A stretch of DNA of 64,000 bases from an uncultured Candidatus Saccharibacteria bacterium (lineage in GTDB: Bacteria > Patescibacteriota > Doudnabacteria > UBA920). The notes under the pieces were generated by a model. That model saw only the letters and a list, made by a program, of their open reading frames with translations. It searched no databases and had not been told where the DNA came from. The position numbers and the translations under genes are program-made. The stretch lies in the NCBI GenBank assembly GCA_964490395.1, contig CAZBAS010000002.1, forward strand, positions 18,566-82,565, read 5' to 3'. Of this stretch, positions 13,907-20,934 are shown piece after piece. Every line of letters begins with the position of its first letter. The stretch's first letter is position 1.

Positions 13907-14004
13907 AAAGTATCGATGCTAATATACGAATACATACTAATGATACAAATAATGCCCAATGTATTAATTCGTATAATTAGTACATTGGTATATTCGTATC
14001 GATA
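13907..14004. repeat. AT-rich imperfect inverted repeat at the atpD/atpC junction.
   Basis: AGTATCGATGCTAATATACGAATAC ... GTATATTCGTATCGATACT. Confidence 0.55.
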
Positions 14005-15405
14005 CTATTTCACTTGTGAAATATCCCCTTTCATATAAAACGCTTGCTCTGGGAATTCGTCCATCTCACCGGAAAGAATTTTCTTAAAACCAGAAATGGT
14101 ATCTGCTAAAGACACATACTGCCCCGGAGCCCCAGTGAATACTTCCGCAACAAAGAACGGCTGCGAAAGGAAGCGCTGTATCTTACGGGCACGAGCAACT
14201 ACAATTTTATCTTCTTCTGGAAGTTCTTCCATACCAAGAATAGCAATTATATCTTGCAAGTCGCGGTAGCGTTGTAATATTTTCTGCACCCCACGAGCAA
14301 CATCGTAGTGCTCTTGGCCAACAATGTTGGCGTCAAGAATAGTAGAGCTAGAATCCAGCGGGTCTACAGCTGGGTATATAGCAAGTTCAGACAAAGCACG
14401 AGATAGCACCACAGTGGAGTCTAGGTGGGCAAAGGTCGTTGCAGGTGCTGGGTCAGTTAAGTCGTCTGCAGGCACGTATACAGCCTGTACAGAGGTTATA
14501 GAACCTTCTGTGGTACTGGTAATGCGTTCTTGGAGCTCACCCATTTCTGTAGCCAGTGTTGGTTGGTATCCTACCGCACTTGGAATACGACCAAGAAGCG
14601 CAGATACTTCACTGCCTGCTTGGGTAAAGCGGAAAATGTTATCTACGAACAAGAGCACATCTTGTTTTTGTTCGTCGCGGAAGTACTCTGCCATGGAAAG
14701 TGCAGTCAGCGCTACACGAGCACGGGCTCCTGGTGGCTCATTCATCTGACCGAACACCATAGCGAGCTTATCGAGTACTTTTGCATCTTTCATTTCGTGA
14801 TACAAGTCATTTCCTTCACGGGTACGCTCCCCTACACCGGCAAACATGGACACACCACCGTGTGCTTTTGCAATGTTGTTGATAAGTTCCTGAATAACCA
14901 CTGTTTTACCTACACCAGCACCGCCAAACAAACCTACTTTACCACCTTTAAGAATGGGACAAATGAGGTCAATAACTTTAATACCAGTTTCCAGTACTTC
15001 GCTCTTAGTAGACTGGTCTACGAGCTTTGGGGAAGGGCGATGAATTTCGTACTTCGCTTCTGCCACTGGAGCTTCTATGCCGTCTATAGGATCGCCGAGC
15101 ACGTTGAACATGCGGCCAAGGGTAACTGTACCAACGGGCACAGAAATGCCTTTGCCTGTATTCACTACAGTCATACCGCGCTTCAGACCATCGGTACTAG
15201 ACATAGCAATAGCGCGCACTGTTCCGCCCTTAAGTTGCTGCTGCACTTCAAGTGTAAGACTCTTTCCTTCGCCCGTATCTATGGTAAGTGCGTTAAATAT
15301 TTCAGGAACACCTGTTTCAAAATGCACGTCCACGACCGGACCAATAATTTGGGTAATGGTACCCGTTGGGTTCTCCATATGCTGCTTTGTTACTTTCGTT
15401 GCCAT
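14005..15405 (-). CDS. atpD: F1 ATP synthase beta subunit.
   Basis: Walker A GGAGVGKT and the DELSEED-region equivalent; 466 aa; position in the atp operon. Confidence 0.95.
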
Positions 15406-15414
15406 AAATATATG

Positions 15415-15500
15415 TGATAATGTCTAATTTCTAATATCTAATGTCTAATGAATTCCCAACTCCTAAATTAGAAATTAGGAATTAGATATTAGACATTTCC
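15415..15500. repeat. AT-rich inverted repeat built from tandem (T)TCTAAT heptamers, at the atpG/atpD junction.
   Basis: AATGTCTAATTTCTAATATCTAATGTCTAATGAATTCC ... CCTAAATTAGAAATTAGGAATTAGATATTAGACATT. Confidence 0.65.
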
Positions 15501-16595
15501 CTACTGCCCTTCCAACGCTATCTTCCCTGCCGTTATTTCACTCAACTCGGTTGTAATCTTATTTTGCCGCAGTTGGTTAAACGTAAGGGTTAAGTCTGCA
15601 ATTAAGTCTCCAGCACTTTCTGTTGCGTTCTTCATCATGATCATGCGGGCACTGTGTTCGGAGGCATCGCTTTCTAGCAGAGTCTGATAGAGCTGGCTTT
15701 CAAGAACTTTCGGAAGCAGGTGGCTGAGTACTTTTTCTGGAGATGGTTCTATGAGGTAGCCTGCTTGGTTCATACCACCCCTCGCCCCTCCTACCTTAGG
15801 AGGGGAACCGGAGGATACATCTGCGATTGAGGAACCACTATCGGCATTTTTTCCTCCCCTAACATAGGGGAGGCTAGGTGGGGTATCATTTTCGAGGCTC
15901 AGCGGCAACAGCTGCACTGTGCGTGCTTGTTGAGATAGTGTAGAAATAAAATGGTTATAGACTATATAAACGGAATTGTATTCCCCAGATATAAATGAGT
16001 CACTTATGAGACGCGCAACGGGAGCTATTTGGTCAATGGACGGGGTACTTTCGGACTTTGCAAAATCTGCCAGTACTCGGCGACGCATGCGTACAGCCAT
16101 GTCCATGGCTTTGCGACCCATAATAACGTACTCAAGGTTATCACGACCGTGCTGTTCCTCGAGTTTTTTAATCTGAACAAACAAGTTCGAGTTAAAACCG
16201 CCAACAAGTCCTTTATTTGTGGATATAACAACGACTAGTGCTTTTGTCGCAGAAGTGTTTGGTTGCATAAGAGCTGCGTAGTTCGTACCCTCTCTAACTC
16301 CCCCTACTCTAGGGGGAGAACCGGAAGAAACATCCGTGACGTAGGAACCACCCTCGGCATTTATTCCCCTCCTAGAATAGGAGGGGTTAAGGGCGGTAGG
16401 ATTCTCTGACGCCGATACCGTACCCCCCAAAGACCGCACCAAACTAAGCGCAAGCTCGCTATACGTGCGGCTGGCAACAGTTGCAGCCTGACTCTTGCGC
16501 ATTTTGGCAGCACTAATCATCTGCATAGCCCGCGTAACCTTGCGCGTGCTCTTGATAGATTTTATTCGGCGTGTGAGTTCTTGCGTACTTGGCAT
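15501..16595 (-). CDS. atpG: F1 ATP synthase gamma subunit carrying two in-frame insertions of about 35-40 aa derived from a palindromic repeat element.
   Basis: The conserved N-terminus (RRIKSIKSTRKVTRAMQMISAAKMRK) and C-terminus (SEHSARMIMMKNATESAGDLI...ELSEITAG) are present. It is 364 aa against about 290 typical. The extra segments ...SYVTDVSSGSPPRVGGVREG... and ...TPPSLPYVRGGKNADSGSSIADVSSGSPPKVGGARGG... are encoded by the repeat copies at 16299..16396 and 15785..15882. Confidence 0.85.
   Translation of the reverse strand: MPSTQELTRRIKSIKSTRKVTRAMQMISAAKMRKSQAATVASRTYSELALSLVRSLGGTVSASENPTALNPSYSRRGINAEGGSYVTDVSSGSPPRVGGVREGTNYAALMQPNTSATKALVVVISTNKGLVGGFNSNLFVQIKKLEEQHGRDNLEYVIMGRKAMDMAVRMRRRVLADFAKSESTPSIDQIAPVARLISDSFISGEYNSVYIVYNHFISTLSQQARTVQLLPLSLENDTPPSLPYVRGGKNADSGSSIADVSSGSPPKVGGARGGMNQAGYLIEPSPEKVLSHLLPKVLESQLYQTLLESDASEHSARMIMMKNATESAGDLIADLTLTFNQLRQNKITTELSEITAGKIALEGQ
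15785..15882. repeat. Hairpin-pair repeat element (RPE-like), copy A, inserted in-frame within atpG.
   Basis: CCCCTCCTA-CCT-TAGGAGGGG ... CCTCCCCTA-ACA-TAGGGGAGG-CTAGGTGGGG. It aligns with copy B at 16299..16396 and with the half copies at 20636..20675 and 36388..36425. Confidence 0.7.
16299..16396. repeat. Hairpin-pair repeat element (RPE-like), copy B, inserted in-frame within atpG.
   Basis: CTCCCCCTA-CTC-TAGGGGGAG ... CCCCTCCTA-GAA-TAGGAGGGG-TTAAGGGCGG. The shared core ...AACCGGA(G/A)GA(T/A)ACATC...GGAACCAC(T/C)(A/C)TCGGCATTT.. confirms homology with copy A. Confidence 0.7.
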
Positions 16596-19641: not shown

Positions 19642-19719
19642 ATAATATTCGTTAATTCATTAAGAATAAAGAATTATGAATTAAGCTGACGCATACTTCA
19701 TAATTCTCACTTCATAATT
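19642..19719. repeat. AT-rich inverted repeat (GAATTATGAA units) at the atpB/atpE junction.
   Basis: ...TTCATTAAGAATAAAGAATTATGAATTAAGCTGACGCATACTTCATAATTCTCACTTCATAATTCT...; the GAATTATGAAT unit recurs at 20600 and 8925. Confidence 0.6.
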
Positions 19720-20580
19720 CTAAACGGAAGGGGTGGGCTCTAGCAACTCCGCATCTTCCTTATGGCTCACTGCATCATGCTCGTGCACTTCTGTAGTTGC
19801 TATGGTCAAGTACACCAACGTAAGCAAGGAAAATACAGTCGCCTGCACCACACCTACCAAAAGCTCTAAAGCCATGAACGGAAGCGGAGCTACATATGCA
19901 ATAAGGGACGCAAGTACGGTCAATAGAACCTCGCCAGCAAATACGTTTCCAAATAAACGCAAAGAAAGGGAGGCCATTTTCGCCACTTCGGAAAACACTT
20001 CAATTATTCCTACCACAAACTCTATGAGCGAGATAAGAATTTTTGTTGGATTCATGCTCCGGACCGCTTTATAAATATCGCCAATCTTGATGAACTTGTT
20101 CGCGTACTTAAAAAACCCTATAGCGAAAATACCAATGATGTGGGAAGACACCACCACTAGTACAGCCATGGACAAGGTCATGTTAAGGTCGGTATTTGCT
20201 GGCCTAAACAGTGGGATAAGCTCTAGCTCGCCATGATGCATTTGCCACATACCAATAGAGCCTATGCCTGGCAAAAGTCCAATCCAGTTGGAAACGACAA
20301 TGAAGAAAAAGAGAGTTCCCACAATTGGCAAGAAGCGAAGAGTTTTTTTTCGGTCTCTGGTAACGCCGTCAAAATAGCCTAGAAGTATTTCTAAAATGGA
20401 TTCAAAAAAGTTTAACAAACCTTTTGGTGATTTGTTTGAGTATTTTTCCACTGCCCGCTTAATGCACCATGCAAAAATAGCAAAACCAACTACGGTCAAC
20501 AAAGAATTGATGTAGCTGTTTGTGACTGGAAAACTGCCGATATGGAAAATTGGTTCTGCTGCGAGAGGCGGAAGAGTCAT
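19720..20580 (-). CDS. atpB: Fo ATP synthase subunit a.
   Basis: Multi-TM; conserved R in SLSLRLFGNVFAGE; operon position. Confidence 0.85.
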   Translation of the reverse strand: MTLPPLAAEPIFHIGSFPVTNSYINSLLTVVGFAIFAWCIKRAVEKYSNKSPKGLLNFFESILEILLGYFDGVTRDRKKTLRFLPIVGTLFFFIVVSNWIGLLPGIGSIGMWQMHHGELELIPLFRPANTDLNMTLSMAVLVVVSSHIIGIFAIGFFKYANKFIKIGDIYKAVRSMNPTKILISLIEFVVGIIEVFSEVAKMASLSLRLFGNVFAGEVLLTVLASLIAYVAPLPFMALELLVGVVQATVFSLLTLVYLTIATTEVHEHDAVSHKEDAELLEPTPSV

Positions 20581-20613
20581 GGAGATGCGGAATGATGAAT
20601 GTAGAATTATGAA

Positions 20614-20934
20614 TTAGGATCCAGATTGATCCGGTCCGGTTCCTCCCCTTTCCAAGGGGAGGCTAGGAGGGGTGGAAGACTTGGTAAGCTCCTTACGGAT
20701 TTGATTTATCCTTCTACCAAGAAAGATAGTGCTGGTTATGAGTGCAAGTAAAATCCCGAGCAATGTATATAGGTGCTCATGGTGCGTACGACCATCGAGC
20801 CAGCGACCGCCTAAACCAAATACTACTACTGGTAGCGCAATAACAAAGCCAAATTCAGTTGCAAACCCTATCATGCGTTGCATGGTAAAAGCATAGGGCC
20901 TGGAATTTTCTATATTTTCGCTCACTTTTTCCAC
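20614..20934 (-). CDS. Small 2-TM protein upstream of atpB (AtpI/AtpZ-like) whose C-terminal tail (TPPSLPLERGGTGPDQSGS*) is encoded by a half copy of the RPE-like repeat.
   Basis: Position and topology resemble atpI. Nucleotides 20636..20675 (CCGGTTCCTCCCCTTTCCAAGGGGAGGCTAGGAGGGGTGG) match the second hairpin of the atpG copies and translate in the same frame as in atpG. Confidence 0.4.
   Translation of the reverse strand: MEKVSENIENSRPYAFTMQRMIGFATEFGFVIALPVVVFGLGGRWLDGRTHHEHLYTLLGILLALITSTIFLGRRINQIRKELTKSSTPPSLPLERGGTGPDQSGS
20636..20675. repeat. Half copy of the RPE-like hairpin element forming the 3' coding end of the atpI-like gene.
   Basis: CCTCCCCTTTCCAAGGGGAGG-CTAGGAGGGG; compare copy A's CCTCCCCTAACATAGGGGAGG-CTAGGTGGGG. 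Confidence 0.6.

Follow-up and report, generated by a model that had tools for sequence, protein, structure and literature searches.

Cyanobacteria have long been known to carry heptamer STRR repeats, and a bias towards heptamers has been documented, for which a polymerase-footprint explanation has been proposed. The same architecture has been described for Xanthomonas and Nostoc, where intergenic heptamer arrays occur in inverted pairs (PMC4692102). These arrays are 89-93% intergenic, form 70-75 inverted pairs among ~185 arrays, and vary in length and sequence between close species; no function was found for them (PMC4692102). The stretch of DNA analyzed here, a window of 64 kb from an uncultured, Doudnabacteria-like bacterium of the CPR, carries hairpins of comparable design in the spacers of its atp operon. 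We propose to name them tandem-heptamer inverted repeats and to regard them as part of a widespread DNA repeat class. The unit is 7 nt long (occasionally 8-9 nt), ~5 of its positions being conserved and ~2 variable; one arm strings 3-6 such units together, and a loop of 10-60 nt separates it from the array of complementary units.

The atp Operon and Its Hairpins

The atp operon was assigned from ORF calls and translations, homology to the ATP synthase subunits of relatives, and Pfam labels on orthologues (Table 1). Its genes follow the order atpI-like, B, E, F, H, A, G, D, and C on the minus strand. The operon has a sole promoter-like site, 5' of the atpI-like gene, and a sole minus-strand intrinsic terminator at or past its 3' end; atpA and atpD contain two matches that resemble terminators, both weak (5 bp). 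The location of the junction hairpins within one transcription unit is supported.

The spacers were folded on the sense strand, each against 200 dinucleotide-preserving shuffles, and Tandem Repeats Finder (TRF) was used to detect unit arrays in the arms. Long hairpins occur at 7 of the 8 atp junctions (-20 to -28 kcal/mol, z -3.9 to -7.4), starting 0-7 nt past the stop codon. Their predicted stability beyond that of shuffled sequence is confirmed at these seven junctions, while their stems, of 22-36 bp, are somewhat longer than the ~15-25 bp of the initial annotation, which had also placed inverted repeats at all eight. The exception is the atpB/atpI-like junction, whose 33-nt spacer (20581-20613) folds at 0 kcal/mol, without any inverted repeat or local hairpin, and which carries only a one-armed array; the complement of this array lies 869 nt away, within the atpE/atpB hairpin. 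Tandem arms are present in six of the seven hairpins, with a period of 7 in five and of 9 in one, and TRF reports arrays in both arms at G/D, H/A, F/H, E/F, and B/E (period 7, ~4-6 copies). Tandem units of 6-8 nt had been claimed; the tandem design stands, but with a strong preference for 7 and with an exception at atpD/atpC, where the inverted repeat has no clear unit periodicity (0.44-0.47) and is possibly a decayed CTAAT/ACGAAT-type element. At atpA/atpG, the period-9 array is reported by TRF in one arm only, the other arm being weakly periodic (0.57). Mismatches in the atpG/atpD hairpin are confined to variable unit positions. The atpF/atpH heptamer array overlaps the atpF stop codon, and the atpE/atpF hairpin ends at the atpF start codon.

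The same elements recur elsewhere in the window, which as a whole has at least seven unit sequences unrelated to one another; the few recurring unit types had been correctly recognized. Among the sites already listed, those starting at 12631, 24254, 26611, 28377, 35216, 60143, and 60520 are upheld as tandem-arm hairpins. The site listed as 23590-23700 does contain a hairpin, but the start called for the DivIC-like ORF falls within its 3' arm, and the one listed as 8905-8945 is a one-armed array that yields no hairpin on folding (mfe -1.6 kcal/mol). A further hairpin, just 3' of atpC, had been overlooked; it holds the intrinsic terminator of the operon in its loop and, since its 3' arm lies past the U-tract, this arm would usually remain untranscribed. 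The hairpins themselves lack T-runs and other terminator features, as first stated. Within the window, loops of same-type hairpins are mutually unrelated, and the hairpins match no Rfam family. The atp junctions are enriched in these elements (6/8, versus 9/60 other junctions in the window; Fisher p ~0.001).

Table 1. Repeat elements, atp genes, and associated features of the 64-kb window
Feature	Position	Strand	Fold or basis
One-armed period-7 array, GAATTAT type	8912..8947		TRF
Tandem-arm hairpin, period 8, CATATAAG / TGTTTAAA	12631..12738
Tandem-arm hairpin just 3' of atpC, CATGTAA/ACATATA units	13351..13438
Intrinsic terminator of the atp operon	13382..13404	-
atp operon	13451..20934	-	ORF calls, translations, homology, Pfam labels
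atpC	13451..13906	-
atpD/atpC long imperfect inverted repeat	13909..14006		-25.3 kcal/mol, z -3.9
atpD	14005..15405	-
atpG/atpD hairpin, CTAAT-type heptamers, 4-5 units/arm	15418..15497		-26.9 kcal/mol, z -5.6
atpG	15501..16595	-
atpA/atpG hairpin, AAAGTTTAT-type units, period 9	16606..16676		-22.6 kcal/mol, z -5.8
atpA	16680..18179	-
atpH/atpA hairpin, ATTGCAA/ATTGTAG-type heptamers	18187..18261		-28.1 kcal/mol, z -5.1
atpH	18266..18658	-
atpF/atpH hairpin, CTAAT-type heptamers	18674..18751		-25.0 kcal/mol, z -4.6
atpF	18748..19323	-
atpE/atpF hairpin, AATNNCT (CTAAT-type) heptamers, ~36 bp	19332..19409		-28.3 kcal/mol, z -7.4
atpE	19420..19641	-
atpB/atpE hairpin, TTATGAA-type heptamer arms	19659..19720		-20.1 kcal/mol, z -3.9
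atpB	19720..20580	-
atpB/atpI-like one-armed period-7 array, GAATTAT type	20590..20616		TRF
atpI-like	20614..20934	-
Promoter-like site 5' of atpI-like (TTGCCA, 17 nt, TG-TAAGAT)	20970..20998	-	consensus match alone
Hairpin, GACAAAAG/TCATTTTT-type units, at DivIC-like gene start	23609..23670
Tandem-arm hairpin, ACAAATCT-type units, period 8	24254..24321
Hairpin, ACGAATCT-type units, between MurJ and LepA genes	26611..26662
Tandem-arm hairpin, TTTTAAT/TTTCAAT heptamers, between DUF4012 and MurJ genes	28377..28470		z -3.9
Long hairpin, ACGAAT-type units, between glycosyltransferase and amidohydrolase genes	35216..35327		-58.1 kcal/mol, z -8.8
RNase J gene	56956..58824
CTAAT/CCAAT-type hairpin between rpmG (60200-60367) and tRNA-Trp	60143..60191
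AAAGTT-type hairpin, period 9, upstream of rpmG	60520..60592

Distribution and Turnover

Close relatives (81-96% AtpA identity) possess 0 to 7 atp-junction hairpins, often with another unit type at the same junction. Occupied junctions amount to 7/8 in the window and in L084, 5/8 in L085, 0/5 in L083, and ~0/8 in L088; in the latter two (81-87% AtpA identity), the spacers of this operon are short and unstructured, with essentially no hairpins. Recognizably orthologous hairpins are restricted to A/G (window and L084, which differ by at least one pair change that appears compensatory), B/E (window and L085), and H/A (window and L082). The H/A hairpin of L082 is that of the window plus a nested 40-nt GC-rich palindrome; L081 (96% identity) exhibits at this junction a different hairpin, with CGAAT/TGCGAAT-type units. 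Only the 5' arm of the atpF/atpH hairpin is left in L082 (93% AtpA identity), and one-armed arrays also exist. Small ORFs are inserted at atp junctions of relatives. All relatives examined have long, structured junctions on either side of atpE (B/E and E/F), even those without tandem hairpins. No direct slippage polymorphism was observed. As judged from these comparisons, the repeat class turns over fast.

The CTAAT pattern matches at least 120 metagenome contigs, none of them viral. None of 82 CTAAT hairpins lies within an ORF; 48 are flanked by co-directional genes, 7 by convergent and 5 by divergent ones, the remainder being near contig ends. The search pattern itself requires paired cores, and the variable positions of these 82 metagenomic hairpins are complementary in only 48% of cases versus 31.5% with shuffled partners. 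Tandem-arm hairpins in the CTAAT-pattern loci have a period of 7 in 128 out of 130, and non-CTAAT units in 34. Arrays number 466 at period 7 versus 14, 48, 30, and 14 at periods 6, 8, 9, and 10. An inverted partner is present for 78% of the period-7 arrays, more than simple slippage predicts, suggesting that the hairpin form is favoured by selection or by some other process. Most arms contain stop codons in all or most frames of both strands, so that only intergenic copies survive. In one dispersed sub-family, the loop is conserved and the flanks are unrelated. No atp genes occur in the 80 loci found via the CTAAT hairpin pattern. Acidobacteria, Chloroflexi, and Verrucomicrobia also have the period-7 design in atp operons. 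Of the period-7 hairpins in atp-anchored loci from other phyla, 11 lie inside atp spans and 5 outside (expected 31% inside; p ~0.002), making them ~5x denser within these spans than in the flanks, an excess that could reflect selection for intercistronic structure.

Origin of the Hairpins

Arm mismatches on the sense strand comprise 21 G.U versus 19 A.C, hence no strand bias, and the summed mfe is equal for sense (-176 kcal/mol) and antisense (-179 kcal/mol). We give roughly an even chance to the atp hairpins being a DNA-level, slippage-prone repeat class that colonises permissive spacers and tolerates shifts of pairing register. Replication slippage would create heptamer arrays and alter their length, and the inverted partner would be made or renewed at the DNA level, as suggested by the nested cases and the dispersed sub-family, either by intrastrand template switching about an existing palindrome centre or by whole-element copying. 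With tandem arrays in both arms, the 5-bp cores can pair in any multiple-of-7 register, and an arm that gains or loses units still leaves a helix mismatched only at variable positions. Surviving copies are seen to fill the space from the stop codon to the next start. Transcribed in the polycistronic mRNA, the atp copies would form helices with energies from -20 to -28 kcal/mol, which could halt exonucleases (RNase J, for example) or attract RNase III. We would see such a role as incidental, or exapted in occasional cases at most, and not as the reason for which the hairpins exist; any influence they have on mRNA is likely to be a by-product. Counting against a DNA-level repeat are the atp enrichment, both in the window and in the atp-anchored loci of other phyla, the structured atpE flanks, the 78% pairing, the A/G compensatory change, and the lack of observed slippage polymorphism, and the 7-nt unit length is left unexplained by it.

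It is unlikely that the hairpins are instead selected intercistronic RNA elements, namely sites for RNase III and/or obstacles to exonucleases of both the 5'-3' (RNase J) and the 3'-5' type, with cistron-specific stability tuning subunit stoichiometry, the main idea of the initial annotation. Occupancy of 6-7 of the 8 atp junctions against 9/60 others, the ~5x density in atp spans of other phyla, and the long structured B/E and E/F spacers of all relatives would fit such elements, as would starts 0-7 nt beyond stop codons, the near absence of internal terminators, an RNase J gene in the window, and the apparent compensatory change at A/G. However, mismatches and fold energy lack sense-strand bias, L083 and L088 manage with short, unstructured spacers in this operon, orthologous junctions carry differing unit types, and such elements are also found where unrelated genes meet, including convergent and divergent pairs. 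Furthermore, one copy is split by a terminator, and the hairpin-pattern search returned atp genes in 0/80 loci. An ATP-synthase-specific control device is not supported, and the slippage-generated selfish palindromes that had been offered as the alternative fit better than a stoichiometry design.

Long inverted arms bracket PF05635 ORFs in four independent loci (L002, L135, L101, and L173), are tandem in at least some cases, and in L002 lie inside an atp operon and likewise bracket a PF13366 ORF. PF05635 denotes the four-helix-bundle '23S rRNA IVS protein' and PF13366 a PD-(D/E)XK nuclease. The hairpins might then belong to a mobile hairpin cassette akin to rRNA intervening sequences, either as its empty landing pads or as non-autonomous derivatives of it. 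Autonomous copies of the cassette would hold one of these small ORFs between the arms, and ORF-less copies would spread like MITEs. The conserved loop at unrelated flanks, the element nested in the L082 hairpin, and the small ORFs at relatives' atp junctions point the same way. This origin is nonetheless quite improbable: the window has no ORF-bearing copy, transposase, RAYT, or PF05635 gene, its same-type hairpins have unrelated loops, target-site duplications are not recognizable, same-type hairpins at both junctions of a gene yield bracketed ORFs trivially, and we found no literature linking PF05635 or PF13366 proteins to such arms. Finally, the strict 7-nt period across phyla, the units of ~5 conserved and 2 variable positions, and the binding of cold-shock proteins to heptamer repeats, one protein per heptamer (PMC4679880), could suggest platforms for a protein, e.g. 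of the cold-shock-domain type, reading single-stranded RNA or DNA in 7-nt steps with the hairpin regulating site access, but this is very improbable, as the at least seven unrelated units in the window and the 34 non-CTAAT cases in metagenome loci argue against a sequence-specific reader, pairing would conceal single-stranded sites, and no candidate protein was identified.

Relation to Known Heptamer Repeats

The architecture, seemingly undescribed according to the initial annotation, has precedents in the inverted heptamer pairs of Xanthomonas and Nostoc and in the STRR of cyanobacteria. Inverted pairing is likewise similar, ~75-82% in the published Xanthomonas and Nostoc arrays (PMC4692102) versus 78% in the present analysis. 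We found no description of such heptamer arrays in CPR bacteria in the literature; within this known, still unexplained repeat class, the hairpins of the window would be a new member.

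Hairpins in the spacers of the ATP synthase operon

The atp operon is preceded by a promoter-like site and, further upstream, by a minus-strand terminator (see the table below). The window belongs to an uncultured member of the CPR/Patescibacteria. An exact-protein look-up returned no record identical to its AtpA; the closest AtpA proteins share up to 96% identity with that of the window, several named matches at 77-84% being 'Candidatus Doudnabacteria', and the AtpA of the best species-representative genomes is 65-68% identical. A terminator scan reports a sole minus-strand intrinsic terminator at or past the operon 3' end and no terminator-like site within any atp spacer, two weak 5-bp terminator-like stems being located inside the atpA and atpD coding sequences. 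Considering this promoter-like site, the 3' terminator, and the spacers devoid of terminators, the atp spacers are most likely internal to one transcript, as far as the sequence can tell.

The initial annotation assigned a long inverted repeat to each of the eight atp junctions. Folding of each spacer against 200 dinucleotide-preserving shuffles bears this out for seven of them, which fold at -20.1 to -28.3 kcal/mol (z -3.9 to -7.4), a stability reached by 1/200 shuffles for atpD|atpC and by 0/200 for the other six. The exception is the 33-nt atpB|atpI-like spacer, which does not fold and contains a one-armed period-7 array alone, i.e. an array devoid of a local inverted partner. At G|D, H|A, F|H, E|F, and B|E (junctions being named after the atp genes on either side), Tandem Repeats Finder reports arrays of period 7, with 4-6 copies, in both arms; at A|G it reports a period-9 array in one arm, the other arm being weakly periodic. 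At D|C, the inverted repeat is long, imperfect, and devoid of clear periodicity. The atp-junction hairpins were rejected as intrinsic terminators, since none matches the consensus of a short GC-rich stem and a U-tract. They match no curated RNA family either: Rfam 15 returns four tRNAs and nothing else for the whole window at gathering score, and a permissive search of positions 13200-21100 reports generic hairpin matches below threshold (E 0.09-0.9).

Coordinates of the features discussed, in the window unless a comparison locus is named (L081-L088, atp loci of close relatives; other L-numbers, loci retrieved by atp genes or by the CTAAT pattern)
Feature	Position	Strand	Remarks
Minus-strand terminator upstream of atp operon	21045-21030	minus	terminator scan
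Promoter-like site, atp operon	20998-20970		
atp operon	20934 to 13451	minus	order I-like, B, E, F, H, A, G, D, C
Intrinsic terminator	13404-13382	minus	just past atpC, last operon gene; terminator scan
Hairpin around operon terminator	13351-13438		
One-armed array	8905-8945		no hairpin
Period-7 arrays in both arms	28377-28470		4-6 copies; Tandem Repeats Finder
CTAAT-type hairpin outside the operon	60143-60191		
TTATGAA-type arrays bracketing atpB	19680-19720, 20590-20630		41 nt, 73% complementary, 869 nt apart
GC-rich double palindromes in atpG	15775-15895, 16290-16400		in frame
Same GC-rich motif	20636-20680		C-terminus of atpI-like protein
Same GC-rich motif	36393-36420		
PaaX_M (Cas2-like) gene 1	38272-38934		
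Palindromes around gene 1	38230-38271/38963-39002		
PaaX_M (Cas2-like) gene 2	44770-45294		
Palindromes around gene 2	44732-44771/45308-45349		
RNase J gene	56956-58824		
GIY-YIG gene	59651-59908		85 aa
Long non-tandem hairpin	59909-60046		-78 kcal/mol, z -14.5
Ribosomal protein L33 gene	60200-60367	minus	55 aa
Three mini-hairpins	60610-60665		directly downstream of tRNA-Thr
Lysine-rich peptide	12800-12883	minus	27 aa, MAKKATKKAAKKKVAKKATKKASKKRL
Palindrome nested in atpH|atpA hairpin	L082 950-990		40 nt, GCTCCGACGCTTTGGT...ACCAAAGCGTCGGAGC
Extra ORFs between atp genes	L081 2078-2476; L082 538-909, 2544-2939; L085 11509-11811; L088 9754-9993		
PF05635/PF13366 genes between arms	L002 7931-8281, 15229-15657; L135 284-658; L101 8086-8451; L173 3536-3790		

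Anatomy of the hairpins

The hairpins start 0-7 nt past the stop codon of the upstream gene, and 0-18 nt separate their end from the next start codon. Their commonest unit, AATNNCT (the CTAAT type), is found at G|D, F|H, and E|F as well as near 60 kb. The other unit types of the window are TTATGAA, ATTGCAA/ATTGTAG, AAAGTTTAT, TTTTAAT/TTTCAAT, ACGAAT(CT), CATGTAA/CATATAAG, and ACAAATCT; the units are AT-rich and devoid of G-tracts, in spacers with a GC content of 0.21-0.27. Mismatches between the arms are confined to fixed phases of the unit, its variable positions, and the helix is therefore a chain of 5-bp cores with mismatches of 1-2 nt between them. Among 82 metagenomic CTAAT hairpins, the variable positions are complementary in 48% versus 31.5% with shuffled partners, hence the arms are not plain inverted copies of each other. 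Since both arms are arrays, any register shift by a multiple of 7 still pairs, and the hairpin thereby tolerates the gain or loss of units. On both strands, most hairpins contain stop codons in every reading frame or in most of them, which confines them to spacers.

Distribution in the window and in close relatives

The window contains about 15 tandem-arm hairpins and three one-armed arrays, all intergenic, located at 8.9-35.3 kb and near 60 kb, a minority having a period of 8-9. Neither hairpins nor arrays occur in the compact 40-56 kb block, where type II/IV secretion and pilin-like genes are found. All the sites proposed in the initial annotation outside the atp operon are confirmed except one, a one-armed array without a hairpin. 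A further hairpin, absent from its list, carries the operon terminator in its loop; its 3' arm is past the U-tract and is absent from terminated transcripts. CRISPR or TIGR-type (TIGR-Tas) arrays were discarded, as the window has no spacer-repeat arrays and no Tas/Cas genes.

Relatives differ in how many of their atp spacers carry the design. Hairpins are present at 7/8 atp junctions of L084 (AtpA 86% identical to that of the window) and at 5/8 of L085 (84%), L086 and L087 (both 84%) have a few, mostly non-tandem, L083 (87%) has none at five junctions with spacers of 11-113 nt, and L088 (81%) has essentially none. The window shares recognisably orthologous hairpins with L084 at A|G, with L085 at B|E, and with L082 at H|A. 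At other junctions, the unit type differs between the window and its relatives. The H|A hairpin of L081 (AtpA 96%) differs from that of the window, and L082 keeps the 5' arm alone at F|H; at shared junctions, both the length and the sequence of the hairpins vary among close relatives. On either side of atpE, all relatives have long, structured junctions, whether or not tandem units are present, and these may hold a selected structure. Two orthologous contig pairs (L120/L157 and L111/L145) share about 84-85% identity overall, too low to compare the evolution rates of hairpin and flank.

Of the relatives, L081, L082, L085, and L088 possess extra small ORFs between atp genes, which return no significant Pfam family, one of them having weak, sub-threshold MazG-like matches. 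The atp operon junctions seem to be insertion hot spots in this clade.

Wider distribution

The pattern CTAAT-NN-CTAAT-NN-CTAAT ... ATTAG-NN-ATTAG-NN-ATTAG matches at least 120 metagenome contigs and none of 2.9 million viral contigs. In the first 80 metagenome loci among the matches listed, none of the 82 CTAAT hairpins is located inside an ORF, and the median distances to the preceding stop codon and the following start codon are 16.5 and 21.5 nt; among the matches listed, 48 of 60 classifiable hairpins lie between co-directional genes, 7 between convergent and 5 between divergent ones. The 120 loci among these matches comprise 130 tandem-arm hairpins, of which 128 have period 7 and 34 are made of other units. 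Arrays of period 7 number 466, versus 14, 48, 30, and 14 for periods 6, 8, 9, and 10, and an inverted partner occurs within 140 nt for 78% of period-7 arrays versus 0-37% for the other periods, again among the matches listed. One metagenomic sub-family displays a conserved loop at unrelated flanks, indicating that whole elements are sometimes copied.

Of the 17 hairpins with periodic arms in 80 loci anchored on atp genes and taken from all phyla, 16 have period 7, in Acidobacteria (L049, L052, L066), Chloroflexi (L060, L007), Verrucomicrobia (L012), and others. Eleven hairpins are inside atp spans and five outside (31% expected inside, p about 0.002), these counts being non-independent and drawn from few genomes. 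The unbiased pattern search reports atp genes in none of the first 80 loci among the matches listed; a universal atp preference was therefore rejected, and the enrichment in atp-anchored loci remains suggestive only.

Other palindromes and small genes

A GC-rich double palindrome, CCCCTCC-N7-GGAGGGG ... CCTCCCC-N7-GGGGAGG, occurs twice in atpG as insertions of about 40 residues each (aa ~65-107 and ~240-283) that are absent or different in relatives, and the same motif is found at two other sites, one of them in the atpI-like protein. The atpG element resembles the in-frame Rickettsia palindromic elements (RPE) and is distinct from the tandem-arm hairpins. In L082, a 93% relative, a GC-rich perfect palindrome is nested in an otherwise identical atpH|atpA hairpin, indicating that a second kind of small palindromic element is mobile in the lineage and lands in hairpins. 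Two genes encoding small PaaX_M (Cas2-like) domain proteins are each bracketed by perfect, related palindromes of 38-42 nt, which could be operators or delimit a small cassette. The spacer between the GIY-YIG gene and tRNA-Trp is filled by an exceptionally stable non-tandem hairpin, and the three mini-hairpins in a row past tRNA-Thr have GCTTAGC loops (CCACGCTTAGCGTGG, GACCCGCTTAGCGGGTC, TTCCGCTTAGCGGAG). The L33 gene and the lysine-rich peptide fall below the 60-aa ORF listing; L083 and L084 have similar lysine-rich ORFs downstream of atpC.

Origin and possible roles of the hairpins

We read the hairpins as a DNA-level repeat class, with as much confidence as doubt. The heptamer arrays would be made and resized by slippage, and their pairing would come about by template switching round a palindrome centre or by duplication of entire elements, as suggested by the two nested cases (terminator and palindrome) and by the dispersed sub-family. 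Tolerance to register shifts retains the hairpins, and their stop codons keep them in spacers, as the sequences show for both. The hairpins would also be folded in the atp mRNA, where they might obstruct RNase J, whose gene is present in the window, or attract RNase III, which we regard as a side effect.

Alternatively, the hairpins might be selected processing or stability elements, a role compatible with their enrichment at atp junctions in the window (6/8 occupied versus 9/60 elsewhere, Fisher p about 0.001). Yet sense and antisense strands fold without asymmetry (summed -176 versus -179 kcal/mol), and the arm mismatches of 25 hairpins from the window and relatives show none either (21 sense G.U versus 19 A.C). 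The hairpin split by the operon terminator and the metagenomic copies between convergent or divergent genes point the same way. The hairpins display no sign of RNA-level selection, and we consider such a role unlikely.

In L002, L135, L101, and L173, small genes are located between long inverted arms. They belong to PF05635 ('23S rRNA intervening sequence protein', an Avd-like four-helix bundle), except for one assigned to PF13366 (PD-(D/E)XK). Some of the arms are tandem-unit arrays, and two of the genes lie inside a CPR atp operon, which suggests a link of tandem hairpins with cassettes of the intervening sequence (IVS) type. The hairpins might accordingly be IVS-like mobile cassettes, the autonomous forms of which carry PF05635 or PF13366 genes. 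The window copies contain no ORF, and we hold this reading to be quite unlikely. Most matches of a long-range scan for ORFs within hairpins were discarded as ordinary genes with same-type hairpins at both junctions, the PF05635 cases alone standing out. In the window, atpB, with TTATGAA-type units at both of its junctions, illustrates how an ordinary gene can look enclosed by arms.

A broader proposal, which we think highly improbable, is a single cross-phylum element class with its own propagation machinery and a PF05635/PF13366-bearing autonomous form as in rRNA IVS. The ORF-less copies of this class, saturating operon junctions, would be excised from transcripts or cleaved within them by RNase III to convert polycistronic mRNA into separately stable cistrons; if true, a hairpin-borne mobile element class would account jointly for the hairpins of CPR bacteria, the repeats of Xanthomonas, and the cyanobacterial STRR. 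Least probable of all, the hairpins would be platforms for a heptamer-reading protein.

The predominance of period 7, the frequency of inverted pairs, the occurrence in atp operons of Acidobacteria, Chloroflexi, and Verrucomicrobia, and the recurrence of PF05635 between arms point to a general process, not a lineage quirk. Bacterial heptamer repeats have been noted since about 1990, and to our knowledge no mechanism or function has been agreed on. The window adds a CPR genome with a heptamer-hairpin architecture, in which unit types of many sorts are found together and nearly all junctions of one essential operon are occupied. By inflating spacers, hairpins can lead astray the prediction of terminators, sRNAs, and operons in CPR genomes, and assemblers probably have difficulty with them. 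Hairpins are also natural candidates for probing the effect of strong intercistronic structure on the expression of a stoichiometric complex.

Comparison with known repeat systems

Searches of the literature on CPR bacteria and on PF05635 genes returned no description of tandem-heptamer hairpins in the former and no link to them in the latter. The REP/BIME and REPIN elements are RAYT-mobilised extragenic palindromes between co-transcribed genes, which are transcribed and stabilise upstream mRNA segments; REP palindromes have a selfish origin and are occasionally exapted. The hairpins resemble them as imperfect extragenic palindromes between co-transcribed genes. However, REPs are non-tandem palindromes of 20-40 nt with a conserved 5' tetranucleotide, many near-identical copies, and a link to RAYT, whereas the arms here are tandem arrays, and copies share the unit alone, with different loops and unit order. 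None of the REP hallmarks of size, near-identity, and tetranucleotide was found among the window hairpins, nor did a Pfam scan of 54 window ORFs report a RAYT (Y1 transposase). With MITE, Correia, and RPE elements they share the character of small structured non-coding insertions, polymorphic in presence between relatives, and one metagenomic sub-family behaves as a dispersed element. No MITE signature of terminal inverted repeats plus target-site duplication was seen, nor a parent IS: neither target-site duplication nor a conserved interior is seen in the window, the empty and filled junctions of relatives being too diverged to align. Unlike the in-frame Correia and RPE elements, they wholly avoid coding sequence. 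The 23S rRNA IVS are extended stem-loops excised by RNase III, some of which encode PF05635 proteins; the likeness lies in the long stem and the optional small ORF in the loop, four related loci having PF05635 between inverted arms, some of them tandem, but the present elements are located in mRNA spacers, not in rRNA helices, and the window copies are devoid of ORF.

Other systems share the heptamer itself. The cyanobacterial STRR are dispersed heptanucleotide tandem repeats, mostly intergenic and variable among strains, with copies known inside the cyanobacterial RNase P RNA gene; in work by Vioque in 1997 they are reported to lengthen an RNA helix, both arms being repeats. We know of no systematic survey of hairpin organisation in STRR, which belong to heterocystous cyanobacteria and have GC-richer units than those described here. 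The TAACTGA repeats, for which a role in translational regulation has been proposed, occur in Beggiatoaceae, cyanobacteria, and Bacteroidetes and comprise 169 direct sets and one inverted (MacGregor 2015, PMC4679880). They have in common with the present hairpins the heptamer period, the intergenic location beside start codons, stops in all frames, and a patchy spread across phyla; but they are nearly all direct and of a single unit sequence, whereas inverted pairs are the rule here.

Heptamer arrays have also been described in Xanthomonas (GGGAATC) and Nostoc (GGGGAYT), 89-93% of them intergenic, mostly between co-oriented ORFs and near the upstream one, with 70-75 of the convergent pairs in a total of about 185 arrays (Rehm et al. 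2015, PMC4692102). They are transcribed, close species differ in their length and sequence, and no function was found (PMC4692102). This paper also cites an earlier report of heptamer over-representation in bacterial SSRs and a polymerase-slippage hypothesis for it. Both sets consist of 7-nt tandem units, typically about four of them, in which some positions are conserved and others vary, with an intergenic bias and mostly co-oriented neighbours; convergent pairs able to form stem-loops take up about 75-82% of the arrays there (calculated from the PMC4692102 counts) versus 78% here. The initial annotation described the feature as seemingly undescribed, which does not hold, the same kind being known from these heptamer hairpins. 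In Xanthomonas and Nostoc, one G-rich unit dominates and is read through its G-quadruplex potential, while the AT-rich units here allow no G4, which removes the explanation offered for Xanthomonas. Here, many unit types coexist per genome in a small-genome CPR host, and the saturation of one operon is not reported for Xanthomonas or Nostoc. The feature is real and striking, but is neither atp-specific nor new in kind; it adds to the poorly understood class of heptamer-repeat hairpins a new member, found in CPR bacteria and built of many types of AT-rich unit.
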